UHGV virus genome: UHGV-0102822
Reading direction: 5' to 3' (one strand)
Length of the DNA: 18,997 nt
Origin: a virus
Shown: positions 3,672-18,997 of the stretch, in pieces
Layout of the letters: the number at the start of each line of letters is the position of its first letter
How positions within the stretch are numbered: the first letter of the stretch is position 1
Program-made: the position numbers and the translations under genes
The notes under the pieces: model-generated
Told to the model about the DNA's origin: nothing
The model's database searches: none
The model's input: the letters and a program-made list of their open reading frames with translations, nothing else

Positions 3672-3696
3672 AGGGACTCTTCGGAGTCCCTTTTTT
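3672..3696 (+). terminator. rho-independent terminator after the capsid gene
   Basis: GGGACTC-TTCG-GAGTCCC, a perfect 7-bp GC-rich stem with a UUCG tetraloop, followed by TTTTTT. Confidence 0.75.
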
Positions 3697-3706
3697 CGTT
3701 TTGGAA

Positions 3707-3716
3707 CTAAATAAAG
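3707..3716 (+). promoter_or_regulatory. CTAAATAAAG motif (candidate late promoter) with AAAAAGGAGA Shine-Dalgarno directly downstream
   Basis: Part of a 27-bp cassette, CTAAATAAAGAAAAAGGAGACAACATG, that is 24/27 identical to the one at 14626-14652. Confidence 0.45.
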
Positions 3717-3730
3717 AAAAAGGAGACAAC

Positions 3731-4033
3731 ATGCTTTTTCCATACACACAAAAACAAAAACAAGAATTCTTAAAACGATTTGGTCAAACGCTATTAATCG
3801 ATAATAAAGAAACTCTGGCTATTGTCGAAATTGAAATTACTAACGTTGATGGACAAGTATCAGAAACGTTTTATATAACAATTGATGAAGTAATAGCTCG
3901 CCAAGATCTCGAAGTTCATTACAAAGAAAACATCTACCGAATTGCTTATATCGTTAACGATGGTTCAGGACTTGTTAATGCTTATTTGTCTTTAATTGGT
4001 GATAACAGCGGAAGGACTAGCAAATATGAATAA
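3731..4033 (+). CDS. hypothetical virion protein, connector/head-completion candidate by position
   Basis: 100-aa ORF from ATG 3731, preceded by AAAAAGGAGA with 5-nt spacing. The track's 3701 start is a TTG lying inside the promoter/SD region. No recognisable motif; the role is inferred only from position after the capsid gene. Confidence 0.55.
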   Translation: MLFPYTQKQKQEFLKRFGQTLLIDNKETLAIVEIEITNVDGQVSETFYITIDEVIARQDLEVHYKENIYRIAYIVNDGSGLVNAYLSLIGDNSGRTSKYE

Positions 4034-4431: not shown

Positions 4432-5460
4432 ATGACAAATGATATTTTTGTGGCTAATCTCGTCCGTGTTTCTGTAAATGAAGAAGCAACGTCGGAGATT
4501 CCTAGCTACTTTGACCCAGGATATATTGAAACTGAAAATGTTGCTGCTTTTCCGGTAATAGGATTTTCAAATCAAGTTCAATCACTCGAAGATTATCGAG
4601 AAGATTTTGAAGTTAAATTATCAGGTGATCAAACAATTGATAACACTGTTTTAAGCATATTTGAATCTGATGATGAAGTTTCCGAATTGTTAGACAATGC
4701 GTTAATGAATAAGAAAAAACTTCGATTTAGAAATCTTTATGTTGTCGATTCAGAACATACAAGAGAAAGACAATCCGGTCTTTATCATATCTTTGATGCT
4801 TATGTTACGAAGAAAGAAACAAACGGGTCTGAGAGTTCCGCTGTAATTAACAACTATACTTTAAGTCCAGACGGTAAATTATTTTCAGGTTACGCTGAGT
4901 ATTCAACTCCGTTAAACGTTGGCGATTATGGTGTTGGTGCAGGAACAGAAGAAATCGAAGGTGTAAAAGATTTAGGTCTTTTGACTGGTAACAGATGGAT
5001 AACTGTTGATGGGGTTAACACTGATAATCCATATAACTCTGGCACGTCTGCTATGGCAATTCAGCATCCAAGTGGTCAAGGATGGGAACTGATTGGAGCA
5101 AGTATCGGTAATCCTAGCATACGTATTCGTAACAAGCAGATGAATCCCGACGGGACAATCAATGAATCGAATTGGGTTAAGGTCTATACAGAACTTGAAC
5201 GTCCTACAACAGAAGACATTGGAGCGCTTCCTATTACGGGAGGAACGTTACAAGGTTCACTGACGATTCAGGATTATTTGACTGTACGCAAAAAGATAAA
5301 CGCCCCGCTTGTTGAAATCGACAATCTAAATACTAAAGAAATTCAATCTGATTCGGTGAAAGTCAAAGGTCAAGAAGTTTATTCTCCTACGAATAAACCA
5401 ACTCCTGTTGATGTTAACGCAGTAGCTCAAGGTGAAACGTTAGACGCCGGAACATTCTAA
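4432..5460 (+). CDS. putative tail structural protein carrying a tail-fiber-type GGT-x-x-G-x-L motif in its C-terminal part
   Basis: 342 aa, with GTGAGGA SD before ATG 4432. The C-terminal region contains DIGALPITGGTLQGSLTIQDY, the motif class seen in phage tail fibers and also present in the 951-aa fiber downstream (SKAGDTMTGDLTV). Confidence 0.45.
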   Translation: MTNDIFVANLVRVSVNEEATSEIPSYFDPGYIETENVAAFPVIGFSNQVQSLEDYREDFEVKLSGDQTIDNTVLSIFESDDEVSELLDNALMNKKKLRFRNLYVVDSEHTRERQSGLYHIFDAYVTKKETNGSESSAVINNYTLSPDGKLFSGYAEYSTPLNVGDYGVGAGTEEIEGVKDLGLLTGNRWITVDGVNTDNPYNSGTSAMAIQHPSGQGWELIGASIGNPSIRIRNKQMNPDGTINESNWVKVYTELERPTTEDIGALPITGGTLQGSLTIQDYLTVRKKINAPLVEIDNLNTKEIQSDSVKVKGQEVYSPTNKPTPVDVNAVAQGETLDAGTF

Positions 5461-5473
5461 AAAATTTGATTAA

Positions 5474-5482
5474 TTAAATAAC
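5474..5482 (+). promoter_or_regulatory. TTAAATAAC, a weaker variant of the recurring TAAATAA motif upstream of the tail fiber gene
   Basis: Lies 31 nt upstream of ATG 5513 and is followed by the CAGGAGAA SD; one mismatch to the CTAAATAA core. Confidence 0.25.
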
Positions 5483-5512: not shown

Positions 5513-8368
5513 ATGGCTAATAACAAAGTCAAACACTATAGGACTGATGTCGCAGGACGTAAACCTGATGCTTCAAAAATGCTTGAAGGTGAAATTGCTA
5601 TTAACATGACCGATAAAAGCATTTTCACGAAACGTGGAACTGAAATCGTTAATATCGGTAATGGTGCTGATTCTGTCGTCGAAGGTGGACAGACTTTTAT
5701 CGGTGACGTTCAAGCAAATAAATTAAAATCTGACACTGATATTTCTCTGAAAAATTCCGAGAAAAGTTCTATCGTTTTTGAAGATGAACACGGTAAAGCA
5801 AAAGTCGAATTGAAATCTGAAAAGCAAACTGATTCCGAAGGCTCTTTGAAAGTTGTTGTTTCGAACGGTAAAAACGCTTCAACAGGTTATTCAACTTATG
5901 ATTTCGTTAATGGTCGTTTACGTTTACCAGTTGCACCAATTGAAGCTGATAACGCAACGCGTAAAGACTATGTTGATTCAGAGATTAAGAAAGTCTCCGA
6001 CGCAACAGGAACGAATCTGACAGCTTTAGAGAATAAAGTTAACGCTAACGACACGAAACAGACCGAAGCGAACACCGAGCTGGACAATCGTCTTAACGCT
6101 AAGATTGATTTAAACAATACGACTATTAACACGAAAGTTGACGCTAACAAAGCCGACGCAGATTCAAAGATTAAAGCTGTTAATGATCGTTTGACTGTTG
6201 ATAATCAGACTTTGACCGACATGATTAATACCAAGGTTTCAAAAGCTGGTGACACAATGACTGGCGACTTGACTGTTCCTAAATTGAATGCCGACGGTAT
6301 CAAAGCAAATTATATTAACTTGGGTCCTAATCCTAATAGTTTAGGTGCTAACAGTATTATGATGGGAGATTCCGATACAGGATTTAAATGGAGAGAAGAC
6401 GGTTGGTTAGACACTTATTCCAATAATGTTGTTGTATCAAGTGTTGCAGGATCTCAAAACTTTTTTAATCGTCAAGTTACGATTAGATATAGAAGCGATG
6501 GTGCAGGAAACGTTAACGGTCTGGCACCTGCTGGCACATCTTTGCTTAAAATCGATACAACGACCGATGGAAACGGAATCGGAGACGGATACACTTATTT
6601 CGGATTATCAAATGCCGGTAAATATCATAACTATCTGAGAGGAACCGGTGCAACGTTCATCGATTCTCATGACGGTGTGAGAATAAGTGGTCAGACTCAT
6701 ACTCTTGCGGGAGTTGTGACTTCTGGTAAATCAGTAGGAACTTATGATACTTATTCCATGGTCAACTGGACTCAAGACACACAAGCTTTCAACCGTCTGA
6801 GACATTTCAGAGCGTGTGGTGCGTCGACCTGGTGGCATGAACTTGTATGGGCACATCATGATAATCCAAAATATTCGGATTCATTAACTTGGTGGCAGGG
6901 TATCGGGGCTGATAACTGGATTGCATCATTGCACCAAAGCGGTAATTATAAGACAAACCGATTCGAAGCACACGGCAGAAGTGCCGCTTATAAGCTTTTC
7001 AGTGCGACAAGTGAAGCTGCTTATATTTCTGGTAACAACGATGGAAAAGAAAACTCATGGCTGTTAGGTAAAACAGATGCCGGAACAAACATCATGTTTC
7101 AGAATAATATGGTTACGGGTCAAAGTTCCGCCGTAGTTCTGAGACAGAACCATGTGCAGCTTAACGCTAATGGTTATAATACCCTGACAGTTCTTGATAA
7201 CAGAATTGAAATCGACGGTTCAAGATGGGCAGCAACAAACAGTCACGCTTGGTCAGATCAGTGGAATCAATTGCCTCCTGTTCTGCTTAATTTCGGAACA
7301 TCTTCAGGTGCAAGTGATTATTATCCTGGATTTGCATTGCAGCAAACGACTTCCCAGGCGGGATATCATACTCGTTTTGAAATGGGAATAATTCGAGCCG
7401 GTGCACAGTACGGAAAAGGTGTAATACGTGTTTCTGAACCGAACCATGCTGCGATGGCCGGAAAAAATCAGTCCATTTATGAATTTGATATAAACGGAAG
7501 ATTCGCATCACCGAATATTGTTGATACTCCTAAAGTTGAAACCCGACAGATAACAAGTTTCGGTGTTAATACTCTTAACGTGCTAGGCGGAAACTCAATT
7601 GCGTTTGGTGATGGTGACACCGGTATTCGTCAAAGAACTGATGGAAACTTAGAAATTCTGGCAAATAGCGTTCATGTTGCAACATTCGACCACGCGGGAA
7701 TTAATTCATTAACCACTATGCGCGTTTCTTCTCCAAACGATTCTCGTGGCGTATATGTTCATAATATCAGAACAGGCAGCGCAAACGCATTAATTGCTGG
7801 TCAAGTTGATGGCTGGGCTGATTGGGGAGCATGGCGTGAACGTCCTGCTGGAATGATCGTAGAAGCGGGTTCAACTGATAAATGCATTAACATTTGGAAA
7901 TCTGTTCAGTGGGGAACCGAATGGTCTGCTGGAATGGACATTTATAATCCAGCAGGCGGCGCTTATGAAGCCATGCTTCATGTTAGAGGTGCAAACTTTA
8001 CATTTAGAAGCGTTGATGGTGCTGCCCATGCTGTTTCTTGGGTTTCAACTTCCGATAAACGTCTGAAATCAAATCTTGAAAAAATCGAAAACGCAGTTGA
8101 TAAGGTTAATACGTTAACTGGTTACGTTTACGATAAGAAATCAGATTTGAAAGAAACTGAATATTCGTTCGTAACTCGCGAAGCAGGTATTATTGCTCAA
8201 GAACTGAAAGAAGTATTACCAGAAGCTGTTAGTTCTTTCGGCGAAGATGAAATTCTTGGTGTTAACTCTGCTGCTGTAAACGCGTTGCTTGTTAATGCTA
8301 TCAAGGAATTAAGTGCTGATTTGAAAGAAACAAAAGCGCGTCTTGATGCTTTAGAACTTGCTAAATAA
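5513..8368 (+). CDS. tail fiber protein with C-terminal intramolecular chaperone / autoproteolysis domain (peptidase S74-like)
   Basis: 951 aa. The shaft region has P2 gpH / T-even-fiber-like motifs (KAGDTMTGDL; MMGDSDTGFKWREDGW and AFGDGDTGIRQRTDGN repeats). The C-terminal ~105 aa (SDKRLKSNLEKIENAVDKVNTLTGYVYDKK...GIIAQELKEVLPEAV...ALLVNAIKEL...LKETKARLDALE) match the signature of the self-cleaving chaperone domain known from endosialidase and T5 pb1-type fibers. Confidence 0.8.
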   Translation: MANNKVKHYRTDVAGRKPDASKMLEGEIAINMTDKSIFTKRGTEIVNIGNGADSVVEGGQTFIGDVQANKLKSDTDISLKNSEKSSIVFEDEHGKAKVELKSEKQTDSEGSLKVVVSNGKNASTGYSTYDFVNGRLRLPVAPIEADNATRKDYVDSEIKKVSDATGTNLTALENKVNANDTKQTEANTELDNRLNAKIDLNNTTINTKVDANKADADSKIKAVNDRLTVDNQTLTDMINTKVSKAGDTMTGDLTVPKLNADGIKANYINLGPNPNSLGANSIMMGDSDTGFKWREDGWLDTYSNNVVVSSVAGSQNFFNRQVTIRYRSDGAGNVNGLAPAGTSLLKIDTTTDGNGIGDGYTYFGLSNAGKYHNYLRGTGATFIDSHDGVRISGQTHTLAGVVTSGKSVGTYDTYSMVNWTQDTQAFNRLRHFRACGASTWWHELVWAHHDNPKYSDSLTWWQGIGADNWIASLHQSGNYKTNRFEAHGRSAAYKLFSATSEAAYISGNNDGKENSWLLGKTDAGTNIMFQNNMVTGQSSAVVLRQNHVQLNANGYNTLTVLDNRIEIDGSRWAATNSHAWSDQWNQLPPVLLNFGTSSGASDYYPGFALQQTTSQAGYHTRFEMGIIRAGAQYGKGVIRVSEPNHAAMAGKNQSIYEFDINGRFASPNIVDTPKVETRQITSFGVNTLNVLGGNSIAFGDGDTGIRQRTDGNLEILANSVHVATFDHAGINSLTTMRVSSPNDSRGVYVHNIRTGSANALIAGQVDGWADWGAWRERPAGMIVEAGSTDKCINIWKSVQWGTEWSAGMDIYNPAGGAYEAMLHVRGANFTFRSVDGAAHAVSWVSTSDKRLKSNLEKIENAVDKVNTLTGYVYDKKSDLKETEYSFVTREAGIIAQELKEVLPEAVSSFGEDEILGVNSAAVNALLVNAIKELSADLKETKARLDALELAK

Positions 8369-8371
8369 TAA

Positions 8372-8391
8372 AAAGGGACGAAAGTCCCTTT
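8372..8391 (+). terminator. hairpin terminator after the tail fiber gene (A-tract / stem / T-tract, possibly bidirectional)
   Basis: AAAGGGAC-GAAA-GTCCCTTT with a GNRA loop. The T-run is short (TTT then C), so termination is probably partial. Confidence 0.5.
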
Positions 8392-8394
8392 CAT

Positions 8395-8405
8395 CTAAAT
8401 AATAA
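8395..8405 (+). promoter_or_regulatory. CTAAATAATAA motif (candidate late promoter) upstream of the 162-aa gene
   Basis: Second copy of an 11-bp direct repeat (first copy 8361-8371, overlapping the fiber stop) flanking the terminator hairpin. Followed by a 14-bp palindrome and the AAGGAT SD. Confidence 0.35.
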
Positions 8406-8433
8406 CGTTATTACTTAATAAAGGATATTTAAA

Positions 8434-8922
8434 ATGGCTGATAAAGCATATGATATTTTCGCTGGCTCTTACGTCAGTGTATTTTTCAACTCTGACGTAT
8501 TGAACAAAGATATCGACTCAGAGAAATTCGTAGAAGTTCCTGAAGTTGGCGCATTTCCTACGACTGGTATCGAACGTGAGGTAATCGTTGCTCCTAACTT
8601 TACTCACAAATACAGCCGTAAACTGGTTGGTCGTGGTTCTGTTCCTGATATCGATTTGACTGTTAACTATATTCCTGGGTCTATTCATGATCAGCTTTAT
8701 AAGCTTGCGGAAGATGGTAAACGTGGTCAGTTCAAAATCGTTTATTGGATGGATGCTTCTAAAGAAATCGGTGTTGCAAAAATGTATAACGGTTTCCTGT
8801 CAAGCGCTACTTATTCCGGTGGTGAATCAGAAGTTGCTGCACAGGCTATGACTCTGAGTGTTGATGGTGGTCCAATTGCCGAAGCTTTGGTTGATTTGAC
8901 TGCTCCAACTCCAGAAGGCTAA
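8434..8922 (+). CDS. putative tail tube or minor tail protein
   Basis: 162 aa, acidic, with a pattern loosely reminiscent of tail-tube-fold proteins (DIDLTVNYIPGS...KRGQFKIVYW...GGESEV). Flanked by a terminator on each side, suggesting an abundantly expressed structural gene. Assignment is weak. Confidence 0.35.
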   Translation: MADKAYDIFAGSYVSVFFNSDVLNKDIDSEKFVEVPEVGAFPTTGIEREVIVAPNFTHKYSRKLVGRGSVPDIDLTVNYIPGSIHDQLYKLAEDGKRGQFKIVYWMDASKEIGVAKMYNGFLSSATYSGGESEVAAQAMTLSVDGGPIAEALVDLTAPTPEG

Positions 8923-8943
8923 TCGTTTTATTGTTCAATCTTA

Positions 8944-8969
8944 AAAGACTCCTAACGGGGTCTTTTTTT
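8944..8969 (+). terminator. rho-independent terminator after the 162-aa gene
   Basis: AAAGACTCC-TAAC-GGGGTCTTT, a 9-bp stem with one G-U pair, followed by a run of seven T (three of them in the stem). Confidence 0.7.
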
Positions 8970-8973
8970 GGCT

Positions 8974-8983
8974 CTAAATAAAG
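8974..8983 (+). promoter_or_regulatory. CTAAATAAAG motif (candidate late promoter) upstream of the gpK-like gene
   Basis: Exact CTAAATAAAG immediately after the terminator, then AGAGG SD and ATG 9002. Confidence 0.4.
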
Positions 8984-9001
8984 TCAGAGGTGAATCTTAA
9001 A

Positions 9002-9418
9002 ATGTTTAAATTTCAAGCTGACTTATCAAAATTATTAAATCGTTATATCAACAAAGAACACAAATACGGTCAAAACGACTGTAATATCCTTGTCGCTGAA
9101 TATATCGATATGACTTGCGGAACAGATTACGCAAGCAAACTTATTTCCAAATATGACTCTGTTCAATCGGGTTTAAAACACTGCAAAGAACTTACAGGTT
9201 TTAATAACGTTTTAGAAGCTTGTGAAAAGCATTTCGAAAAATCAAACATTATCGAAACAGGGTCAATTGTCTTAATTAAAAAAACATACAGACGCCGAGT
9301 TTATTACGTTGCGTCGATTGTCTTTAACGACAAAGCAATTATTGAACACAACAACAAATACGCTTTGATAAACGTAAAAGATTTTGAATACGAATTAATT
9401 TTTAACAGGAGAAAATAA
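9002..9418 (+). CDS. NlpC/P60-type tail assembly protein (lambda gpK C-terminal domain-like)
   Basis: 138 aa from ATG 9002; the track's GTG 8990 overlaps the SD. Cys-His-His spacing typical of NlpC/P60 (QNDCNILVAEY ... IIEHNNKYALI). Sits directly upstream of the gpJ-like gene, as gpK does in lambda. Confidence 0.55.
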   Translation: MFKFQADLSKLLNRYINKEHKYGQNDCNILVAEYIDMTCGTDYASKLISKYDSVQSGLKHCKELTGFNNVLEACEKHFEKSNIIETGSIVLIKKTYRRRVYYVASIVFNDKAIIEHNNKYALINVKDFEYELIFNRRK

Positions 9419-12400
9419 TGGCTATTGTCGCAATTGGTGCAATCATCGCTGGTGCTTCTGCTGGTCTTGCTGCTTATGCCGCTGGGATGGCATTAGCTAT
9501 TTCAATCGGTATTGGTGTTGCTGTTGCTGCTGTTTCCGCTTTAATGTCAACAGCTATGCAACCAACTGTTCCTCGATTTAATACAAGTGATACCGCAACA
9601 ACATTAGGAACAACGTCTGATCCTTCAACTGTATTACCGATTATCTACGGTGAACAACGCACAGGAACAATTAACGTTTGGGATGCTGTAGGAAATGATA
9701 CGACTTATTTGGTGCAAATTTTTGCAATTGCCGAAGGTGAAGTTGATAGCTTTAAAAACCTTTATATCGATAACAAGCGTATTCTGAATGATGCCGTTTA
9801 TCGTGATGGAATTGTTTCAAGAGGTTCAATCGTTTCTCAATATCAAGACTATGTGCAAGTTGAATTCTCTGTTGGTAAAGAACAAGGTCATCATTTCAAA
9901 CTTGCTGAACAATACTTAGGAAATGACCCAAGTGGCTGGCCTGTTTCTGCTACAGGTAACGGTGTCGCTTCTTGCTGTATCGTAATGCAGAAACGAAATT
10001 CAGACTTACAAAACCAAGCTGATATCCTACAACCTAACAGTCAGGTCGCTGTTGATGTTAGAGGACGTTTGATTACTGACTTAAACACGGGACAAATCGT
10101 TCCATCTCGCAACGGTGCAAGTCAGATTGTCGATTATCTGACGAACGAACGATACGGATTAGGAGTTTCACTTGATAAAATTAACCTTGATAGTTTTAAA
10201 GCTGCTGCAAATTATGCTTTAAGCAATCAACTATTTTCCGATGGTGCAACAGACCCTAACGCAACGTTTAAAGAAAACTTAACTCAGCTTGCAGGTGCTT
10301 TTAACGGAATGATTTTCGAATCATTCGGACAAGTTTATTGCAAAATCGATGGTCCTGATGTTGTTTCATTTGATTTCGATGAAGAAAATATTTCTGCTGG
10401 TTCAGTTTCGTTGAATTCAGGTGGTTCAGAGGAATATTACAATACGCTGAACGTGAAATATCAAGATCCTGCAATCGATTATTCCGAGCAAGTTCTTCGT
10501 TATCCATCTGACGTGACGACCGACAAAACAATTCAATATGATAAACGTATTATCGCGAAAGATGTTAATTATCGTTTTGTGAAATCTAAAGACCAATTGG
10601 ACAAACTTGCTTCAATCGAACGTAACAAATCACTGTTAAAACAGATTATCAGCTTTAGTTCTCCTGATTCCTATACTATTCAAGTTTGGGATGTTATCAG
10701 AGTTAACTTTGATGAATTAAATTTGCAAGATTCGTTATGGCGCGTTACTAACGTTAGTCGTTCAATGAATAAGGGCGTTGCTGGTATCGTTAACATCACA
10801 GCTACTGAATATATTGAAGAAGTTTATACCGATTTAGACTATGCGAAAGATCCTAATAACAACGGTTCAAACGTACCAAACAAAGGATACTTGATTGCTC
10901 CTACGAATCTTAAAGTTTCAAGCGTTTCAGAAACAGCTTTAGGAAGAACTTTTAAAGTTTCATGGAATTCAGAGCAAGATTTTAACCGTTCAGGTTTTTA
11001 TATTCAATATGCAGTTGCAGGAACAAACCAATGGACTCAAGCAGGATTCACATCAGGAAATTCTTACTTGATTATGAACATGGACCCATTGCAGAAATAT
11101 GATATTCGTGTTTGTGCTTCTGGTGTTTTCTATACGTCTGAATGGGTTTATTCAATGAATGTTAACCCTGATGTCGTTTATAATCTGCCTAAAGTTCGTG
11201 GTCTAAGACTTGTTAACTCTGAGTTTAATAACAACGTTACGCAACAAACGCAATTTGAATTTGCATGGGATAATCAGAGTTCAGAGAAATTCGAAGTTGA
11301 CGGCGTTCAACAGACTTTCGAACAAGTATTTCAGTATTACGAAATCAAAATCACTGGACAAAGACCTGTTGTATACAGAACTAAAGATTTGAGCTTCATT
11401 TATGATTTACGAATGAACCAGCAAAACGGTATCAGTCGTGAAATTAAATTTGAAATCACTGCTGTTGGTTATTCAGGTTTAAGATCTGAACCTACTGAAT
11501 TAATCGTAAGAAATAATCAAGCTCCTGCAATAATCGGTTTTACTGCTTCGAATGGTCCTGGATTATTGATGTGTTCTTGGAACGATCCAATGAGTGTTGC
11601 ACCTGATTATTCTGGAACTGTTATTCAAGTTTCAAATAATCCTGAATTCACTGACATTAATCAAGTTCAGTTGAGTTCTAGCCAGTTCATTGAAAACTTC
11701 CCGTTAGTTGACGGTGAATATTATGTTCGAGCTGCATGGTATGACGTTTTCGGACAAGACCAATTAGTTTGGACTGAATCAGTTTATATCAACATGAAAT
11801 GGGATATTCCATGGACAGAAGATATGAAAGACCAGTTAAACGACTTGCTTGATTTAGACCAACGAGTTGATGGTGCTATCGAGGACGCTTTAGAACTCGC
11901 AAATGCTTATACCGATACTCAGATAACATCAACTAAGCAGGAAGTAACAACCGAGATTGATCAGAAGATCAGCACGTCTAATACAACGTTGCATACTCAG
12001 ATAACGAATGAAACGCAAGGCGCTATCAATCAGGCTATTACGATTCAAACGGCTGATTTTGACGGTAAGTTAAACTCTGCTATAACCGAAGTTGAGAAAA
12101 CCCAAGCGGATGATCGTGCTGCAACAGCTTCACAAATCAGCCAATTAAAAGCTGAAACTACGGATATGGTCGCGACTGTTTCTACCGAAGCAAAAGCAAG
12201 CGTTGACGATTTAGCAGGAACTGTTAACAGTAAATGGGCTGTTTCTACAAACGCCGATGGTGTCGTAGCTGGTATTAGTATGTTGGCATCTAAGGACGCT
12301 GCGGGAAATAAAGCCTCAAGCATTATTTTTAACGCTGATAAGATTGCTATAACAAATAATAACACTGCTCCTAATGCTGTTCCACCGTTCATGGTCGCAG

Positions 12401-13098
12401 ATGATAGAGTTTATTTACAAAGCGCGATGATTCGCAATGCTTCGATCGGTAATGCTCAAATTGCTAATGCTGCAATTGATAATGCCAAAATTGCTAATGC
12501 TGCAATTAATAACGCGCAGATTCAAGACGGTGCTATTACAACAGCGAAAATTGGTAATGCTCAAATCGGTTCAGCACAAATTGCCTGGGAAATATCCTCT
12601 GATAACTGGGTTCCTTCCGGTGGTACTCAAGGATGGACAATTAGAAAAGATGGTTGGGCTTCATTCCAAAACGTTACAGTTAAAGGAAATATTCAAGCTG
12701 ATTCTGGTTATTTCTCAGGAGAAATCAGAGGTGGTTCTGGTTATTTCACAGGGACTGTTTACGCTGACAGAATCGAAGGTGACGTTATCAAAATGGGATT
12801 TGTCGATCCGTGGGGATCTGTTCATATTCCTGCTGTTGGTTGGAGAAGAATGATTGCTATTCCTAACGTTGCAATCGCCGGAAGAACTTATTCTGGTGGT
12901 ACTGGTTGGGGTGGTGGCAAAGCGTGGTTAAGACTCTCAAACGGCCAAGAAGTTGTTTACGTTCAATCTCAATCTCTAAACGGTTCAAACGGTGGTGTCG
13001 CATACATCGAAGCGGGACAAGCTGTTGATTTAACTTATACGGTCGAATTAAACCGAGCAGAAGCCTCAAGGGCAGTTTATTTTATCAGTAAAGTTTGA
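9418..13098 (+). CDS. central tail fiber / tip attachment protein (lambda gpJ-like) with a fused hydrophobic Gly/Ala-rich N-terminus
   Basis: 1226 aa. After a ~45-aa hydrophobic stretch comes a gpJ-type N-terminal domain (VLPIIYGEQRTGTINVWDAVGN...LVQIFAIAEGEVDSF), then fibronectin-III-like repeats (APTNLKVSSVSETALGRTFKVSWN...), a coiled region, a 5-residue-period repeat tract and a C-terminal domain. The start ATG overlaps the gpK-like stop (TAATG). Confidence 0.75.
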   Translation: MAIVAIGAIIAGASAGLAAYAAGMALAISIGIGVAVAAVSALMSTAMQPTVPRFNTSDTATTLGTTSDPSTVLPIIYGEQRTGTINVWDAVGNDTTYLVQIFAIAEGEVDSFKNLYIDNKRILNDAVYRDGIVSRGSIVSQYQDYVQVEFSVGKEQGHHFKLAEQYLGNDPSGWPVSATGNGVASCCIVMQKRNSDLQNQADILQPNSQVAVDVRGRLITDLNTGQIVPSRNGASQIVDYLTNERYGLGVSLDKINLDSFKAAANYALSNQLFSDGATDPNATFKENLTQLAGAFNGMIFESFGQVYCKIDGPDVVSFDFDEENISAGSVSLNSGGSEEYYNTLNVKYQDPAIDYSEQVLRYPSDVTTDKTIQYDKRIIAKDVNYRFVKSKDQLDKLASIERNKSLLKQIISFSSPDSYTIQVWDVIRVNFDELNLQDSLWRVTNVSRSMNKGVAGIVNITATEYIEEVYTDLDYAKDPNNNGSNVPNKGYLIAPTNLKVSSVSETALGRTFKVSWNSEQDFNRSGFYIQYAVAGTNQWTQAGFTSGNSYLIMNMDPLQKYDIRVCASGVFYTSEWVYSMNVNPDVVYNLPKVRGLRLVNSEFNNNVTQQTQFEFAWDNQSSEKFEVDGVQQTFEQVFQYYEIKITGQRPVVYRTKDLSFIYDLRMNQQNGISREIKFEITAVGYSGLRSEPTELIVRNNQAPAIIGFTASNGPGLLMCSWNDPMSVAPDYSGTVIQVSNNPEFTDINQVQLSSSQFIENFPLVDGEYYVRAAWYDVFGQDQLVWTESVYINMKWDIPWTEDMKDQLNDLLDLDQRVDGAIEDALELANAYTDTQITSTKQEVTTEIDQKISTSNTTLHTQITNETQGAINQAITIQTADFDGKLNSAITEVEKTQADDRAATASQISQLKAETTDMVATVSTEAKASVDDLAGTVNSKWAVSTNADGVVAGISMLASKDAAGNKASSIIFNADKIAITNNNTAPNAVPPFMVADDRVYLQSAMIRNASIGNAQIANAAIDNAKIANAAINNAQIQDGAITTAKIGNAQIGSAQIAWEISSDNWVPSGGTQGWTIRKDGWASFQNVTVKGNIQADSGYFSGEIRGGSGYFTGTVYADRIEGDVIKMGFVDPWGSVHIPAVGWRRMIAIPNVAIAGRTYSGGTGWGGGKAWLRLSNGQEVVYVQSQSLNGSNGGVAYIEAGQAVDLTYTVELNRAEASRAVYFISKV
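12430..12585 (+). repeat. tandem 15-bp / 5-residue periodic repeat tract inside the gpJ-like gene
   Basis: About nine consecutive pentapeptide units: IGNAQ IANAA IDNAK IANAA INNAQ IQDGA ITTAK IGNAQ IGSAQ. The underlying DNA repeats AATGCTCAAATTGCT / AATGCTGCAATTGAT. Confidence 0.7.
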
Positions 13099-13122
13099 TT
13101 TCTTTCCCCCAAATCCGTTTTT

Positions 13123-13132
13123 CTAAATAAGA
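13123..13132 (+). promoter_or_regulatory. CTAAATAAGA motif (candidate late promoter) upstream of the small-gene cluster
   Basis: Lies 28 nt upstream of ATG 13160; AAAGGAGAAAG SD in between. Confidence 0.35.
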
Positions 13133-13159
13133 CATGGAGGTCTTAAAAGGAGAAAGAAA

Positions 13160-13456
13160 ATGGGTGTTGAAGCCATCATTTCTTTCGCGGGACTGCTATG
13201 CGCTGGCTTTGGATGGATTTGGTCTCAAAAGAACGCAATGGAAGCCGACGCTTTAAAAATCGAACAGAGACTATCTGAAATCGAGAAAAGCGTTGCTCTT
13301 AATAGTGCGACCGATTCAAACGCAAATACTGAATTAACCAACGTTCGTGATTCGTTTAAGGAGTTTAAAGGTGATATGAAAAGTATAGACAATCGAATTA
13401 GAGAAATCGAAATTCGATTAGCGGTGATAGACAGTGAAACGAAAAGAAATAAATAA
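13160..13456 (+). CDS. small membrane-anchored coiled-coil protein (N-terminal TM helix plus helical domain)
   Basis: 98 aa. N-terminal hydrophobic segment AIISFAGLLCAGFGWIW, followed by heptad-like charged helical sequence (ALKIEQRLSEIEKS ... IDNRIREIEIRLAVID). The architecture resembles an i-spanin or other signal-anchored periplasmic protein, but function is unassigned. Confidence 0.5.
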   Translation: MGVEAIISFAGLLCAGFGWIWSQKNAMEADALKIEQRLSEIEKSVALNSATDSNANTELTNVRDSFKEFKGDMKSIDNRIREIEIRLAVIDSETKRNK

Positions 13457-13889
13457 TTACAAGAAAACCCTTTTTGATAAACAAAATAAAAGATGTGCTT
13501 TAACTGGGATAGAAATTACCGATGTTAATAAAGCCCATTTAGACCATGACCACGCTCTTGATGGTTCTCAAGCTGGACGATGCCGAGGATTATTACTCGC
13601 ACAGGCAAACGTCCTTGAGGGCAGATTAAAACATCAATTCATGTATTCAGGTTTAGCGAAGCACATCGAATATATTGATTTTTTAAAAAGATTGGTAACT
13701 TATCTCGAAAAAGATAATTCTAAAAATCCTATTCATCCTCAACTTGTAACAGACCTATCAAAGCGCTTTTCGAAAATGACGTTAAAGCAAATGAAAGAGA
13801 CTTTATTAGCAGAGGACATAAATCCAGTTGGTGATAAAAAATCTCTCATTAACTTGTACAAACAAAATTTAAAGGTGAAGTATGATTGA
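13434..13889 (+). CDS. recombination endonuclease VII homolog (T4 gp49-like, His-Me/HNH-type junction resolvase)
   Basis: 151 aa from GTG 13434, overlapping the upstream ORF by 23 nt. Clear similarity to T4 endonuclease VII as I recall it: HLDHDH, AG-x-x-RGLL, N...LEG..KH.F, SGL, and LVTYLEKDNSKNPIHPQLV versus T4 LLTYLKSDYTQNNIHPNFV. Confidence 0.8.
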   Translation: MKRKEINNYKKTLFDKQNKRCALTGIEITDVNKAHLDHDHALDGSQAGRCRGLLLAQANVLEGRLKHQFMYSGLAKHIEYIDFLKRLVTYLEKDNSKNPIHPQLVTDLSKRFSKMTLKQMKETLLAEDINPVGDKKSLINLYKQNLKVKYD

Positions 13890-14094
13890 AAAAATGAAAG
13901 CTGCATTCAAGAAACTTCCAGCAATGACAGGGGACTTTAAAAAGAAATTCATTTACGCGATGATTGCAATGGCTGTTTATAATTACATCGTTGTTCCGTG
14001 TGCATTGAGTTTCTTCGGAATAGTTCTTCCTATCGTTCCTCTTGATGAAGCTATGAAATATATCTTTGCAATTGTTTCATTTGGGAGTATGTAA
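13882..14094 (+). CDS. small hydrophobic membrane protein (holin-like size, possible dual start)
   Basis: 70 aa. N-terminus MIEKMK has two in-frame ATGs (13882 and 13894) separated by a Lys-containing tripeptide. A ~30-residue hydrophobic core (FIYAMIAMAVYNYIVVPCALSFFGIVLPIV) and a short hydrophobic C-terminus. Start overlaps the endo VII stop; AAAGGTGA SD. Confidence 0.45.
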   Translation: MIEKMKAAFKKLPAMTGDFKKKFIYAMIAMAVYNYIVVPCALSFFGIVLPIVPLDEAMKYIFAIVSFGSM

Positions 14095-14633
14095 TGGCGA
14101 AACTTGGTGGAGTTAAAAAAGACTTAGACAAATGGCGAATAAAAGAATCTGATCAGTTCTCTAAAAGAGTAACTAAAGCGTCTAAACTCGCTTCTGTTGA
14201 GTTACAACGAAAGATTAATCGACGTGTTGAAGGACCTGTGAATTTCACCAAGAACGCCGTTGGGTTCAGATTTAAGATTGATAAAGAAGGAACAACTAAC
14301 AGAATCTTTATCAAAGACGTTCAGGCGAATTATCTTTCACACTTGATAGATGATAACAGTCCGATTAACAAATATGTTCCAACAGGGGTAAGAGGTTCGA
14401 CTAACCAGTTCGGTAACATTCCAGGATTAAAAACTCGTAGAAACCTAGAGGCAGTCAAACAAAAGAAAGATGGTATTAACAGAACGATTCTGATTAAGAC
14501 AAATGTTAAAAAACAGAACAAAAGAGTTATTGCTATTTTCAAACGTCATCAAACTCGTAAGAAATCTATTGGTTCTTGGACTGATATTGGTAATGACATC
14601 ATAAAAACGGTTCGTCGTGTTGCTACTAAATAA
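14094..14633 (+). CDS. hypothetical highly basic protein
   Basis: 179 aa, Lys/Arg-rich throughout. ATG overlaps the upstream stop (TAATG); GGGAG SD. No recognisable catalytic motif. Confidence 0.5.
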   Translation: MAKLGGVKKDLDKWRIKESDQFSKRVTKASKLASVELQRKINRRVEGPVNFTKNAVGFRFKIDKEGTTNRIFIKDVQANYLSHLIDDNSPINKYVPTGVRGSTNQFGNIPGLKTRRNLEAVKQKKDGINRTILIKTNVKKQNKRVIAIFKRHQTRKKSIGSWTDIGNDIIKTVRRVATK

Positions 14634-14636
14634 AAG
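14626..14636 (+). promoter_or_regulatory. CTAAATAAAAG motif (candidate late promoter) plus AAAAGGAGA Shine-Dalgarno
   Basis: Part of CTAAATAAAAGAAAAGGAGACAAAATG, 24/27 identical to the cassette at 3707-3733. Overlaps the stop codon of the preceding gene. Confidence 0.45.
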
Positions 14637-14649
14637 AAAAGGAGACAAA

Positions 14650-14970
14650 ATGAACTTAAATGATTTTGAAACATATCGTGTTGACGAACTCGATTCTATT
14701 TTTATCAAAGAGCACAATCCAGAGTCGATGACTATTCCTTATAGCTTTGAACTGGTGAAAGAAACTCGTATAAAAAGGAATCTTCAAAACGACCAAAACG
14801 TTTTTATTGTTAGCACTCAGAAAAAGAAACCTCGTTATCATTTCAAGAATAATGAAATCGTAGAAATCAATGGTCCTTTCTTTGAACAAAATGCTGTTTG
14901 TATTTTTCAGCAAGAATATATTCATAAAGGATTCAGAATGATTGGATATTTCTTCCAATTCATCGAGTAA
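14650..14970 (+). CDS. hypothetical protein
   Basis: 106 aa from ATG 14650; the track's 14617 start is a GTG inside the promoter/SD cassette. Followed by a strong terminator. Confidence 0.5.
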   Translation: MNLNDFETYRVDELDSIFIKEHNPESMTIPYSFELVKETRIKRNLQNDQNVFIVSTQKKKPRYHFKNNEIVEINGPFFEQNAVCIFQQEYIHKGFRMIGYFFQFIE

Positions 14971-14973
14971 TCA

Positions 14974-15005
14974 AAAGGAGTTATCTTCGTGATAGCTCCT
15001 TTTTC
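14974..15005 (+). terminator. rho-independent terminator
   Basis: AAAGGAGTTATC-TTCGT-GATAGCTCCTTT, a 12-bp stem with one G-U pair, followed by a T-run. Confidence 0.65.
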
Positions 15006-15007
15006 GG

Positions 15008-15018
15008 CATAAATAAAG
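15008..15018 (+). promoter_or_regulatory. CATAAATAAAG motif (candidate late promoter) upstream of the chaperone / tape measure operon
   Basis: Variant of the recurring motif, immediately after the terminator and 31 nt before ATG 15050. Confidence 0.35.
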
Positions 15019-15049
15019 TAAACATTTAAATTAACTATAGGATTAAGAA

Positions 15050-15346
15050 ATGAAATTCGAAGAAATGATCGCCGCTCTCGGAGCAAAACGAGAAGTTGTA
15101 GAAATCAAAGGTTTTAAATTTTATGTTCGCGCAATGACCGTTGAAGAATTTGGTAAATTCTTTTTTATGGAAGACCAGACCGATAATATGATTCTGAAAT
15201 GCATTGAGAACGAAGACGGATCCCCTGTTTTTGAAAATATCGAACAAGTCAAACAACTTTATACCACCGTTCGCGCTCAACTTTCTGCTGCTGTTTCTGC
15301 TGCTTCTGTTATGAAAGAAGAAACTCACGCTGTGGAAAAGAATTAA
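15050..15346 (+). CDS. tail assembly chaperone (lambda gpG-like) by position and frame relationship
   Basis: 98-aa acidic ORF directly upstream of the tape measure gene. The downstream ORF is open in the -1 frame across its 3' end (from 15235). Confidence 0.5.
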   Translation: MKFEEMIAALGAKREVVEIKGFKFYVRAMTVEEFGKFFFMEDQTDNMILKCIENEDGSPVFENIEQVKQLYTTVRAQLSAAVSAASVMKEETHAVEKN

Positions 15347-15381
15347 GGCAGAATCCTTATAAAATATTCAAATTCAGAACC

Positions 15382-15729
15382 ATGTTGCGTAGAGGTTTTA
15401 CCGAACGTGAAATTCTGGATATGAGTATTAAGGATTTCTATGAACTGTGGATATATGAAACTTTCATTGAACCTCAAGGTCCTGCTGTAAATGACTTACA
15501 TCAAGCGCATATAGCATTTTCTGTTTTTGCTAATAATCCAAATATTACAAAAGAAGGTTCGAAGAAATTAAAACTGAAAGATTTCATGTTCATCAAGGAT
15601 AAAGTTTTTAAATCTCCTGAAGAACTGGAAGAAGAACAGAAAAAAGCCGCAGAAGCCAACAGAAAGAAAATGGAATCTATGTTCGACCCGAAACTTCTTG
15701 CGAAAGCAAAAGCTAAAAATAGGAAATAA
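15382..15729 (+). CDS. tail assembly chaperone extension (gpT-like part), probably expressed as a G-T fusion by -1 frameshifting
   Basis: The reading frame is open from 15235, in the -1 frame relative to 15050-15346. There is no Shine-Dalgarno before ATG 15382. The product has a basic C-terminus and the gene ends 2 nt before the tape measure start. Coordinates are as given in the ORF track; the true product probably starts at 15050 and shifts frame near 15334-15340. Confidence 0.4.
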   Translation: MLRRGFTEREILDMSIKDFYELWIYETFIEPQGPAVNDLHQAHIAFSVFANNPNITKEGSKKLKLKDFMFIKDKVFKSPEELEEEQKKAAEANRKKMESMFDPKLLAKAKAKNRK

Positions 15730-15731
15730 TA

Positions 15732-18077: not shown

Positions 18078-18106
18078 ATAATCTTCAAGTTATTCACAGG
18101 CAATAC

Positions 18107-18142
18107 GGGCGATTAAAATCGCCCATTAATTATTTTCTTTTT
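18107..18142 (+). terminator. terminator between the convergent tape measure gene and the minus-strand cassette
   Basis: GGGCGAT-TAAA-ATCGCCC hairpin followed by ATTAATTATTTTCTTTTT on the + strand. It lies in the 70-bp gap between the two convergent stop codons, so it may act on both strands. Confidence 0.6.
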
Positions 18143-18147
18143 AAAAA

Positions 18148-18504
18148 CTAAAGCACAGCCTGAAAACTTTGCCACTCAGGTGCATGCATAAGTACCGCGC
18201 TTTGTTCATTTCTATTCCAAATAGGAATCGCTTTCCCTATATAGAAAAAATGTGATGTTGCATCATTACTTTTCTTTTCACTACTTTTTCCTGCTTTTGT
18301 ATATACGACAACAAGATCGCCAGCGCGAACAGGTTTATCCGGAAACCAAAATGTTTCGTAAATACCAGTGTTTACCGACTCATTCTCAAATCCCGTTTGT
18401 AGCAGTATAAACTCTCCAATATTGCATGAACTGTCAACTCGAATGACAATTCGTTCCTTATCTAAGTTTCCAGGTTCGCGAATTGCTGTAATATTAACTT
18501 TCAT
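18148..18504 (-). CDS. hypothetical small soluble protein, second gene of the minus-strand cassette
   Basis: 118 aa. Its ATG overlaps the stop of the upstream membrane-protein gene by 4 bp, suggesting translational coupling. No recognisable motif. Confidence 0.55.
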   Translation of the reverse strand: MKVNITAIREPGNLDKERIVIRVDSSCNIGEFILLQTGFENESVNTGIYETFWFPDKPVRAGDLVVVYTKAGKSSEKKSNDATSHFFYIGKAIPIWNRNEQSAVLMHAPEWQSFQAVL

Positions 18505-18947
18505 GGCTTGACCACCTTTGCAGCTATCCCCCCGACAGTGAGCACACTACCAAAAGCTAACGCGAGCACAGCGGCAGTCGGCTGAGTTGACCAGTTTGAA
18601 GTGGCATATCCAAAGGCAGAGCCTGAAATTAGAAAACATGTCACATGCATTATTTCCAAAGCAATTTTTGTTTTGAATTTTTCTTCTAATACTCCTACAA
18701 GTTTATCGGATGTATGAAACTTATCGCGAATCACACGCAAATCATTGCATTCACCATCTAATCTTTCAATCTCATCAAGCAACATTCGTTGTACCGCAGC
18801 AGAGCTAAGCTCCTCATCAGTTAGCTCTCTGCGAAGATTTGAGAATGATTTGCGTCCAGAATTCCCCTTGGGAACAGCTGTTGGTATCCCCACACTTACA
18901 GGCTCTTCTGGTTCCGTATCAGGTTGATGCCTATTCCCAAAAACCAC
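18501..18947 (-). CDS. hypothetical membrane protein (cytoplasmic helical N-domain plus two C-terminal TM helices), first gene of the minus-strand cassette
   Basis: Probable GTG start at 18947, 6 nt after a perfect AAGGAG; the track's TTG 18971 lies upstream of that SD. C-terminal hydrophobic helices IALEIMHVTCFLISGSAFGYA and TAAVLALAFGSVLTVGGIAAKVV. Uses GC-ending codons (ccg, gcg, gcc, cag, ctc, ggg) that are unusual for the phage late genes. Confidence 0.55.
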   Translation of the reverse strand: MVFGNRHQPDTEPEEPVSVGIPTAVPKGNSGRKSFSNLRRELTDEELSSAAVQRMLLDEIERLDGECNDLRVIRDKFHTSDKLVGVLEEKFKTKIALEIMHVTCFLISGSAFGYATSNWSTQPTAAVLALAFGSVLTVGGIAAKVVKP

Positions 18948-18972
18948 GAAATGCTCCTTTCGTATATTCAAA

Positions 18973-18978: not shown

Positions 18979-18997
18979 GCTAATTAATCGAAGGATC

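Follow-up and report, generated by a model that had tools for sequence, protein, structure and literature searches.

The window, an 18,997-nt stretch of virus genome UHGV-0102822, is the virion module of a ∼34-kb integrated element, located between ybiT and ldtB in E. coli, with a G+C content of 38%, against ∼51% for the host. The element is found in E. coli, Citrobacter, and Enterobacter, with integration by a serine recombinase; carriers include E. coli PSS-15 and the E. coli strain of assembly GCA_030203045.1. The host was recognized from exact protein matches and the identity of the flanks; a contig scan with the capsid protein gave distant, irrelevant hits only. It is siphovirus-like, with a lambda-type terminase and portal, an HK97-type capsid, and its own set of head, tail, fibre, tape-measure, packaging, and lysozyme/lysis genes; the nearest phage homologs of its endonuclease VII and tail fibre are T4-like gp49 and gp37. 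The left, non-structural arm varies among relatives, and the only non-structural genes conserved in most of them encode the small terminase subunit, a 69-aa zinc-ribbon protein, and an adjacent coiled-coil protein. The last two genes are fused in some relatives, and alignments of their products are shallow and confined to enterobacteria. The zinc-ribbon protein matches Zn_ribbon_8 (FmdB) and not Ogr_Delta. No function could be assigned to ∼10 ORFs of the complete element. The sole relative in phage databases, DCP80, is a single, visibly misassembled GenBank record in which a 25-kb copy of the element is jumbled together with T4-like DNA.

Distribution of the motif in the window

The word CTAAATAA occurs exactly seven times in the window (at 1612, 3707, 8361, 8395, 8974, 13123, and 14626), always on the + strand and at a gene boundary, and is absent from the − strand. 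These are the seven sites given in a preliminary description of this DNA, and the two variants listed there, CATAAATA at 15008 and TTAAATAA at 5474, are likewise real. That description placed all copies 20 to 50 nt upstream of a start codon; the gene-boundary and strand parts of the statement hold, whereas the start codon lies 24 to 73 nt from the first base of the motif. Its finding of no motif inside genes does not extend to the 7-mer CTAAATA (nine copies in the window), which lies in coding sequence at 2158 and 5326. The region upstream of the minus-strand genes past the tape measure, described as lacking the motif, indeed has none. The stop codon of the upstream gene is contained in three of the seven exact copies (1613–1615, 8366–8368, and 14631–14633), and the other four are fully intergenic. 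The invariant core is TAAATA, always directed at the downstream gene.

In shuffles of the whole window, CTAAATAA occurred on average 1.32 times, and none of 200 shuffles reached seven. For the 651 nt of intergenic DNA and gene ends, an order-1 Markov model predicts 0.087 copies, and the highest count in 20,000 intergenic simulations was three; CTAAATAA is the top intergenic 8-mer, with the Shine-Dalgarno word AAAAGGAG (four copies) behind it. The enrichment and positional bias that the preliminary description had offered for checking are thus found, at seven copies against 0.087 expected intergenically and none on the − strand. Over the whole window, CTAAATAA ranks third among over-represented 8-mers, with a p value of 6.5e-6 that fails significance once corrected for 65,536 words. 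The signal lies in the placement of the word and not in its raw count. The word is allowed in only one reading frame, and ∼0.12 in-frame copies are expected inside genes.

Conservation among relatives and the base at −12

Relatives with capsid protein identities of 39 to 85% retain the TAAATA core at orthologous positions, while the flanks and nearby hairpin stems diverge. In the window, PSS-15 (a complete 34-kb relative), L002/3, L006-9, L011, and L012 (C-type), the base preceding the core, at −12 in promoter numbering, is almost always C; in L004/5, L010, L013-17, and the DCP80 copy (A/T-type) it is A or T throughout. The DCP80 copy has the exact T4-type word TATAAATA seven times, at orthologous sites, and L010 also has exact TATAAATA at orthologous sites. 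The lineage rule holds even at a box buried in the capsid gene, and such an element-wide change of the −12 base points to a reader that acts in trans.

In the complete PSS-15 element, 12 of the 15 CTAAATA copies face a start codon that is at most 75 nt further downstream; these well-placed copies include ones before minus-strand genes, with matching orientation, and a palindromic divergent region of 48 nt, free of any stop codon, bears boxes on both strands. The genes preceded by boxes, minus-strand ones included, encode capsid, connector, major tail, fibre, chaperone, distal tail protein, lysozyme, and small terminase. No box was found before the recombinase gene, the GntR-like/YadA-like operon, or the minus-strand cargo genes. 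Across 77 and 51 aligned sites, information content is limited to the box and the −12 base, and no −35 element, TGn, or conserved upstream element was seen near the boxes. The A+T fraction is 0.68 to 0.71 at +6 to +12 past the core against ∼0.60 in the flanks, a difference in the direction expected for T4-type late promoters, though a modest one for an element that is already A/T-rich.

Features of individual sites

All features described here are on the + strand, and the usual order of a cassette is terminator, box, optional hairpin, Shine-Dalgarno sequence, and ATG. The first CTAAATAA box (1612–1619; predicted start ∼1624) precedes the protease/major-capsid gene (ATG 1669) and overlaps the portal stop codon; its core is held in L002-L009, L025, and DCP80 despite differing flanks. 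Between this box and the capsid-gene Shine-Dalgarno sequence lies a leader stem-loop, GAGCGTC-GAAA-GACGCTC (1635–1652), that is not followed by a U-tract on the + strand. Its 7-bp stem is 100% paired across six distinct sequences, with compensatory changes in three pairs, and similar hairpins occur in late leaders of T4-like phages. Within the protease/capsid fusion gene, an internal CTAAATA box (2158–2164) has AAAGG and the in-frame start codon ATG 2224 (MKR...) downstream of it (unit 2158–2226). This box is present in all relatives, each with the −12 base of its own lineage (C, A, or T), and is exact TATAAATA in DCP80, and the peptide encoded at the box varies across the relatives. Judged from these sequences, it probably gives rise to a nested late transcript, with its own start, for production of the scaffold/capsid part.

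The capsid gene is followed by an intrinsic terminator (AGGGACTC-TTCG-GAGTCCCT plus a T-run; 3672–3691); its counterparts in relatives differ in the stem but are again hairpins of the C(UUCG)G type. Directly beyond lies the first of two near-identical 27-nt cassettes (3707–3733), with a CTAAATAA box, a predicted leader of 12 nt (start ∼3719), AAGGAG, and ATG 3731. The second (14626–14652), which is kept in L025, has its CTAAATAA box over the stop codon at 14631–14633, again a predicted 12-nt leader and AAGGAG, and ATG 14650. Their similarity, already noted in the preliminary description, amounts to 24 of 27 positions. Analogs of the first cassette in T4-like phages are 'TATAAATAtctttaaaggagaaaagtATG', Ci1 gp37, and tail-tube genes with 14 to 17 nt spacing.

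The CTAAATA copy at 5326–5332, in the 3′ part of a 342-aa fibre gene and 187 nt ahead of the next start, may be a chance occurrence; the equivalent position in PSS-15 reads agcTAAATA. The variant box TTAAATAA (5474–5481) stands before the 951-aa tail fibre gene (ATG 5513), is also present in L025, and is taaTAAATA at the same place in L010. Before the major tail gene (ATG 8434) are tandem CTAAATAA boxes (8361–8368 and 8395–8402; unit 8361–8402) that flank a hairpin, GGGAC-GAAA-GTCCC (8375–8388). The first of these overlaps the fibre stop codon, and its predicted start at 8373 would place the hairpin at the 5′ end of the RNA. The box-hairpin-box order is retained in L004, L006, L009, and L025 with other stems (GGGGA/TCCCC, GCCGG/CCGGC).

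A terminator-like hairpin with a T-run (8943–8969) follows the major tail gene, and relatives have other stems in the same place. The CTAAATAA box after it (8974–8981), before the DUF6950 gene (ATG 9002), corresponds to cTAAATAaagtcagaggtga in C-type relatives and to tatTAAATA in L004/L010. The next box, at 13123–13130, precedes a 98-aa gene (ATG 13160) that is the first of the endonuclease VII cluster. Finally, a terminator-like hairpin (14973–15004) is followed by the variant box CATAAATA (15008–15015; unit 14973–15015) before the tail chaperone gene (ATG 15050); at this site L012 has a hairpin and ttcTAAATA, and L025 has gcaTAAATA.

Search for a factor that could read the boxes

A phage-encoded late sigma-like factor had been proposed in the preliminary description. 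Our search covered the window, the DNA upstream of it, and the complete 34-kb relative PSS-15, and detected no gp55, gp33, gp45, MotA, sigma, or replication protein by Pfam, PHROGs, phmmer (queries DCP80 gp55, gp33, and gp45; threshold E ≤ 10), or PDB sequence search. The proposal is therefore not borne out, either in the window or in the further DNA searched, where a gp55/gp33-like factor might have been encoded. In PSS-15 neither a replication gene nor a late-activation gene was detected, with ∼10 ORFs lacking function calls. The boxes would thus work like T4 late promoters, but the element is not a T4-family genome.

We also looked for phages with C at −12 that could act as helper. In CBA120, Ci1, Serratia WSPA, and Cronobacter S13 the −12 base was mostly A/T, or the stretch examined was an early region in which boxes were few; natural C(−12) variants turned up only here and there, in phT4A and Banach, where they occupy orthologous late promoters. 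Literature searches yielded neither a satellite of T4-like phages nor a prophage with TATAAATA promoters, and a search for the bare word CTAAATA returned primers only. For Felix O1, a CTAAATA-type motif found no confirmation in the paper on that phage; rV5 has a different motif and lacks gp55.

Comparison with known late promoters

In T4 the late promoter reads TATAAATA and spans −13 to −6, the base at −13 being variable (PMC1524935, PMC2988020), and the late consensus of phage Aeh1 is CTAAATA, starting at −12 (PMC1524935; PMC2988020). Known coliphage T4-likes mostly have A at −12 (PMC1524935), as was also seen in the phages sampled here; the different base of the C-type elements was counted against supply of the factor in trans. 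The resemblance to T4 late promoters remarked on in the preliminary description is upheld by the conserved, oriented TAAATA core, the lack of a −35 element, exact TATAAATA in one relative, the match to the Aeh1 consensus, and the layout of the cassettes. Like the boxes described here, T4 late promoters are 8-bp TATA-type boxes with a TAAATA core and no −35 element; they precede virion and lysis genes on either strand, in many cases directly after a C(UUCG)G-type terminator, and 14 to 70 nt from the ATG. The DNA downstream of T4 late promoters is A/T-rich, a trait toward which the present boxes lean modestly. T4-like and ViI-like phages have terminator, box, Shine-Dalgarno sequence, and ATG in matching order, with 14 to 55 nt spacing, and share post-box hairpins and face-to-face divergent boxes with the element.

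The element differs from T4 in that its boxes lie on integrated, siphovirus-like DNA of ∼34 kb without detectable gp55, gp33, gp45, or replisome, and the window's lineage differs further in preferring C at −12. The discriminating C(−12) and the identical 7-mer are shared with Aeromonas phage Aeh1 (Nolan et al. 2006, PMC1524935). However, Aeh1 is a 233-kb T4-like myovirus of Aeromonas with its own diverged gp55, whereas the element, in E. coli/Citrobacter, has none, and in the enterobacterial T4-likes sampled C(−12) is only occasional, unlike in the window's lineage.

A late-promoter interpretation and its alternatives

Our preferred interpretation, to which we give about even credence, is that the boxes are T4-family late promoters of the virion genes and are read by a gp55-like factor most likely supplied in trans. 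We infer promoter function, start sites, and trans supply from the enrichment, placement, orientation, and conservation of the boxes, the lineage-wide change at −12, the lack of a −35 element, the match to a published consensus, and the failure to detect gp55, gp33, or gp45. CTAAATA(A) would be the sole sequence-specific element of the promoter class read by the sigma-like gp55 with the help of gp33 and the sliding clamp gp45, a class that has a TATA-type box at ∼−13/−12 to −6 but lacks a −35 element, and in which the A/T-rich DNA immediately past the box melts. Late transcripts would then begin ∼6 nt past each box, with predicted starts at 1624, 2170, 3719, 5486, 8373, 8407, 8986, 13135, 14638, and 15021, and terminators just upstream would insulate the transcription units. 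The predicted leaders are 12 to 61 nt long, some with a stem-loop, and would bear a strong Shine-Dalgarno sequence; with the upstream terminators, they suggest that the “reused cassette” of the preliminary description is a minimal late expression unit. That two of these leaders would be only 12 nt long counts against the late-promoter interpretation.

Because no recognizable gp55, gp33, clamp, or sigma gene was found in the DNA searched, the factor would most likely come from outside. Its source could be a superinfecting virulent phage that encodes gp55, either a T4-like member of the Straboviridae or a ViI-like member of the Ackermannviridae; the structural genes would be silent in the lysogen and turned on by the late machinery of the invader. 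Ties to T4-like phages that favor such a source are the gp49-like endonuclease VII, the gp37-like tail fibre, the low G+C content, and the DCP80 record, the sole hint of a helper, although this record is a single and misassembled one. T-even phages that contain hmC prevent cytosine DNA from being transcribed late (Alc) and degrade it, which would restrict the range of possible helpers.

The main alternative, which we consider unlikely, retains the same late promoters and makes the element an autonomous temperate phage with its own unrecognized reader, which might be a sigma-like protein that has diverged very far or a small activator that acts together with host RNA polymerase. Temperate phages normally encode their late activator; the element has ∼10 ORFs without assignable function that could include one, and the left arms also differ between the C-type and A/T-type lineages. 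The obvious candidate is the conserved pair of FmdB-type zinc-ribbon and coiled-coil proteins, common to most relatives and sometimes fused, and in the ViI-like phage CBA120 an FmdB-family gene adjoins the gp33 homolog. At 69 aa, the conserved zinc ribbon is about the size of the P2 late activator Ogr and could be an activator encoded by the element, a point counted against trans supply. However, the zinc-ribbon gene lies behind a CTAAATA box and therefore looks like a late gene and not the switch, and no gp55, gp33, sigma, or Ogr/Delta family match was obtained for the element. Activation of the P2 Ogr/Delta kind, by a zinc-finger activator with TGT-N12-ACA at ∼−55, is not matched, as the ribbon is of FmdB type and no conserved activator site lies upstream beside the boxes. 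The lack of a detectable replication module would also be odd for an autonomous phage.

It is very improbable, in our judgment, that the motif instead acts in RNA, as an intercistronic endonuclease processing site, a ribosomal protein S1 site, or a translation enhancer ahead of the Shine-Dalgarno sequence, on a long polycistronic late mRNA. An RNA element would fit a motif that is A/U-rich, always on the coding strand, and near ribosome-binding sites; orientation specificity suits RNA as well as it does a promoter, and the stable hairpins that adjoin the motif could protect processed ends. However, the distance from box to Shine-Dalgarno sequence or ATG ranges from ∼9 to 60 nt, the motif sits past U-tract terminators that would end the transcript carrying it, and its presence on both strands of the 48-nt divergent region would require transcripts that begin inside the opposite gene. 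A one-base switch across whole lineages and identity with a DNA promoter consensus are unexpected for an S1 or RNase site, and an Rfam search matched no known RNA family.

About equally improbable is the reading of the boxes as weak −10 elements for host sigma-70 (or sigma-S), that is, as ordinary host-dependent promoters in A/T-rich DNA. TAAATA and TATAAA do resemble TATAAT, and sigma-S prefers C at −13 followed by TA, but every register of CTAAATAA misses A(−11) or T(−7), and the boxes have no −35 or TGn partner. A sigma-70 consensus scan of the window called none of them, and consensus matches were if anything depleted (34 against 50 ± 7.5 expected); constitutive host promoters before all virion and lysis genes would, moreover, harm a prophage. 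Lastly, a functionless by-product of composition, with two-frame TAA stops and an A-rich spacer before strong ribosome-binding sites, would explain why the word holds TAA twice and supplies a real stop codon in three of its seven copies, but it is effectively refuted by the seven copies where the intergenic model predicts 0.087, the four that are wholly intergenic, the copies in the stop-free divergent region and, in matching orientation, before minus-strand genes, and a core conserved while adjoining bases drift, in one case within a reading frame.

Implications for the biology of the element

T4-type late transcription is regarded as a hallmark of the large virulent T4-like and ViI-like phages. 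That its promoter grammar runs through the virion module of a small integrated element in which gp55, gp33, and clamp went undetected could have two explanations, a gp55-type reader in a family so far unrecognized or wiring to an invading T4-like phage. It is possible, although on balance we doubt it, that the element is a virophage-like hitch-hiker of virulent T4-type phages that outsources late transcription, and perhaps replication, to a superinfecting phage encoding gp55. The late-promoter box of the invader would then stand in every morphogenetic transcription unit, the helper's gp55, gp33, and clamp would switch the element on and its own siphovirus particles would be built at the helper's expense, and the C-type and A/T-type lineages would follow the promoter preferences of different helper groups. 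In that case T-even-type phages would have a first satellite-like parasite, comparable among bacteria to the virophages and possibly serving as a natural defense against, or interference with, phages that are widely used in therapy.

Helper late transcription is borrowed by P4 (with P2 Ogr) and by Sputnik-type virophages (mimivirus late promoter). The proposed likeness is that a late-promoter signal of the helper stands ahead of parasite genes, which would be expressed only with the helper's machinery. Unlike P4, PICIs, and PLEs, the element has a complete head, tail, and lysis set, and it would presumably rely on a virulent T4-like phage as helper. The cf-PICIs are integrated enterobacterial elements that have their own capsid and packaging genes and take the remainder from another phage; they are ∼10 to 15 kb long and have no tail genes, whereas the present element, at ∼34 kb, has tail, fibre, tape-measure, and lysozyme genes. 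T4-type late promoters are not known in cf-PICIs. For annotation of this prophage family, xTAAATA boxes would mark the late transcription units and the nested start in the capsid gene.

Placement and anatomy of the TAAATA boxes

Seven exact copies of the 8-mer CTAAATAA, all on the + strand, lie at 1612, 3707, 8361, 8395, 8974, 13123 and 14626, as the preliminary description had reported, and the two variants that it named are also present. Dinucleotide-preserving shuffles of the window contained 1.32 copies on average, and none of 200 reached seven. Intergenic sequence and gene ends (651 nt) form a fairer background; there 0.087 copies are expected (order-1 Markov), the maximum in 20,000 simulations was 3, and CTAAATAA is the most frequent 8-mer, ahead of the Shine-Dalgarno word AAAAGGAG. 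Since CTAAATAA holds TAA twice, only one reading frame can accommodate it within a gene, and ~0.12 in-frame copies are expected inside genes; three of the seven copies themselves provide the upstream gene's stop codon. The two 27-nt cassettes are real and identical at 24 of 27 positions, and the minus-strand cargo genes past the tape measure gene lack the motif, as had been observed. Two earlier claims need revision: the distance from motif start to start codon, put at 20-50 nt, is 24-73 nt, and confinement outside genes does not extend to the 7-mer CTAAATA, which occurs within genes at 2158 and 5326.

Orthologous upstream regions were compared in at least 12 relatives (capsid protein identity 39-85%). 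TAAATA emerged as the invariant core; around it bases drift and adjacent hairpin stems are replaced. Sites are usually laid out as a G+C-rich hairpin, in many cases with a C(UUCG)G or GAAA tetraloop, and a T-run, followed after 3-15 nt by xTAAATA (the core with its preceding base, at -12), then 9-60 nt with a stem-loop in some cases, a strong Shine-Dalgarno sequence and ATG. Information content in the aligned sites is limited to the box, the preceding base and the two A's that follow, with no -35 or TGn element among them. In the element of E. coli PSS-15, 12 of the 15 CTAAATA copies face a start codon at most 75 nt downstream, including those of the minus-strand zinc-ribbon and distal tail protein genes. 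The divergent lysozyme and distal-tail-protein genes of this element are separated by a palindromic 48-nt spacer (L025 1941-1988, ACGCCTCGCTAAATAAG...CTTATTTAGCGAGGCGT) with one box and one Shine-Dalgarno sequence on each strand, and these boxes are putative face-to-face late promoters. The spacer contains no stop codon, which disposes of an explanation of the box as a stop codon plus A-rich spacer.

The capsid and major tail genes, the two most abundant among the virion genes, each have a conserved stem-loop between box and ribosome-binding site. The 7-bp hairpin of the capsid-gene leader (1635-1652) occurs as six distinct sequences, all 100% paired, with compensatory changes in three pairs. 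In the major tail gene leader, a hairpin at 8375-8388 lies between two boxes, an arrangement kept in relatives with different stems; it would lie 2 nt away from the 5' end predicted at 8373, where an mRNA-stabilising 5' hairpin would be expected.

The base before the core is uniform in each element but varies among lineages: nearly all sites have C in the window, PSS-15 and relatives L002/3, L006-9, L011 and L012, and all sites have A or T in L004/5, L010 and L013-17; the copy of the element in the 'Escherichia phage DCP80' record has the exact TATAAATA. An element-wide switch at every site points to one trans-acting reader.

The internal CTAAATA box at 2158 (region 2158-2226, + strand), within the protease/capsid fusion gene, is kept in all relatives with the lineage-specific base, despite differences in the encoded peptide. 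About 54 nt past it, AAAGG is followed by an in-frame ATG at 2224 (MKR...). This appears to be a start of late expression nested in the gene and serving the scaffold/capsid portion of the fusion, which would imply that this portion is made separately, as in lambda C/Nu3.

Comparison with T4-like and ViI-like phages

The T4 late promoter is TATAAATA at -13 to -6, with position -13 variable, no -35 element and A/T-rich downstream DNA; it is read by the sigma-like gp55 and activated via gp33 and the gp45 clamp (PMC2988020; PMC1524935). In the T4-like Aeromonas phage Aeh1 the late consensus is CTAAATA from -12 (PMC1524935; PMC2988020), exactly the word in the window. The T4-like part of DCP80 has TATAAATA 18-72 nt ahead of late-gene starts (for example, 'TATAAATAtctttaaaggagaaaagtATG'), Citrobacter phage Ci1 has 'GGACTCCTTCGGGAGTCCttttttaTAAATAaagataaaaggagctcctaATG' ahead of gp37, the same cassette as the window's at 3707, and phT4A, Phi1 and Banach have 14-55-nt spacings, with hairpins between box and Shine-Dalgarno sequence. 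In the ViI-like phage CBA120, xTAAATA stands ahead of genes for baseplate and tail, among them a divergent pair (gp2/tail tube) whose boxes are face to face like those of PSS-15. Because the same layout recurs in T4-like and ViI-like genomes that we checked directly, the resemblance to the T4 late promoter noted earlier is borne out, and the element follows the regulatory grammar of gp55-type late transcription. The motif class is already known.

The G+C content of the element is also T4-like, and among phage proteins its endonuclease VII is closest to gp49 of T4-like phages (42-51% identity) and its long fibre to gp37 proteins (31-37%). Its only relative in the phage database is a siphovirus-like element that forms the first 25 kb of DCP80 (GenBank PQ671644, L027-L029); the remainder consists of scrambled T4-like fragments with rIIA in three copies and many other genes in two, so the record is clearly a chimeric assembly of a lysate. 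Duplicated genes include ndd, primase, spackle and gp46/47; DCP80 gp23 shares 97.7% identity with its IME08 counterpart, although the record is filed under Gaprivervirus.

Search for a reader and alternative explanations

The search covered the complete PSS-15 element, the 8 kb that precede the window and, in A/T-type relatives, the left arms. In this DNA no gp55, gp33, clamp, MotA, sigma factor or replication protein was recognisable by Pfam or PHROGs, phmmer with DCP80 gp55, gp33 and gp45 gave no match at E<=10, and PDB sequence searches found no late-transcription reader; the proposal that the element encodes its own late sigma-like factor is thus not upheld. Repressor/Cro, replication and late-activator genes were likewise not recognisable in the PSS-15 element (L025 1-33400).

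We propose that a gp55-like specificity factor reads the boxes as late promoters, with transcription predicted to start 6 nt past the box, giving leaders of 12-61 nt, and terminators upstream of the boxes that would insulate the transcription units. As no reader is recognisable in the element, its simplest source would be a superinfecting gp55-encoding phage, and we infer supply in trans. The virion genes would be silent in the lysogen and fire only once the invader is in late phase, a satellite-like or virophage-like lifestyle. Late transcription of hmC-containing T-evens excludes cytosine DNA, which counts against this mechanism; it is further weakened by the confinement of the evidence for co-occurrence of element and T4-like DNA to a single, misassembled record, and by the lack of any known C-type helper among coliphages. 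This last point is softened by tolerance of C(-12) at some natural late promoters: at orthologous sites phT4A has 'aggcTAAATA' and Banach 'gtcaTAAATA', and in the reverse case Banach has 'tctcTAAATA' and phT4A 'gctaTAAATA'. We found no literature report of a small, integrated siphovirus-like element that has T4-type late boxes throughout but lacks the cognate factor, and we see a substantial, though less than even, chance that this is a new kind of helper-dependent element.

The foremost alternative is an unrecognised activator encoded by the element. The non-structural arm is poorly conserved, and the only three genes that are widespread in it are those for the small subunit of terminase, for a zinc ribbon of FmdB type (69 aa) and for a coiled-coil protein; the latter two, the best conserved non-structural genes of the family, adjoin (L025 6610-7663, - strand), are fused in some relatives and occur in Enterobacterales only. 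A link between them and late transcription is possible, with the zinc ribbon as candidate activator; however, the zinc-ribbon gene is itself behind a box. CBA120 has an FmdB-family protein directly beside its gp33 homologue (L034 43094-43339). The boxes might instead be an RNA-level signal, or weak host promoters, although a sigma-70 consensus scan of the window called no box. Matches to that consensus (34 vs 50 +/- 7.5 expected from shuffling) are, if anything, depleted, which would fit selection acting in the virion module against promoters that the host recognises. Composition alone, the weakest rival, has to face the shuffled and simulated counts.

Genomic setting of the element

The + strand of the window (38% G+C) encodes portal, protease/major-capsid fusion, two tail fibres, major tail protein, J-like tip protein, endonuclease VII, tail chaperones and tape measure protein. 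E. coli chromosomes carry its exact capsid protein and one cargo protein, GCA_030203045.1 is 100% identical to it over 8148-18997, and the flanking ldtB-ybiR-mntR-ompX-dps DNA has 98.5-99.6% identity to E. coli. A second copy, 96% identical, occupies the same site in a genome whose flanking DNA has only 78% identity to E. coli; on that contig the coiled-coil protein is labelled Citrobacter freundii. The complete PSS-15 relative (85% identical, 34 kb) lies between ybiT and ldtB, with a serine recombinase at its start and the tape measure gene at its finish. It also contains (L025 1-33400) a CAP12/Pycsar-type TIR effector gene adjoining an IS2 insertion, a YadA-like anchor protein and a GntR-like winged-helix gene.

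The tail gene order of the window (9418-18077) is unusual, the J-like tip gene coming ahead of both chaperones and tape measure. Distal tail protein and hub are encoded on the other strand, at the far end of the integrated element (L025 727-1940). The DCP80 copy has the canonical order of tape measure, distal tail protein, hub and J. Between the tape measure gene and host ldtB, two cargo ORFs on the - strand (18148-18971; 118 and 148/156 aa) have no family match and no upstream TAAATA box; the PSS-15 relative lacks these ORFs, and the lysogen probably expresses them. A gene-free 1.1-kb stretch of 35% G+C (L024 1460-2571, corresponding to L025 7830-9010), some 6-7 kb before the window begins, is dense in short repeats, both direct and inverted (GCGCGAAGCGC in three copies, CAATTGATAACAAT in two and AA(G/A)TGCATCGC in tandem), has numerous GATC-containing words and may serve as an origin, for packaging or in regulation.
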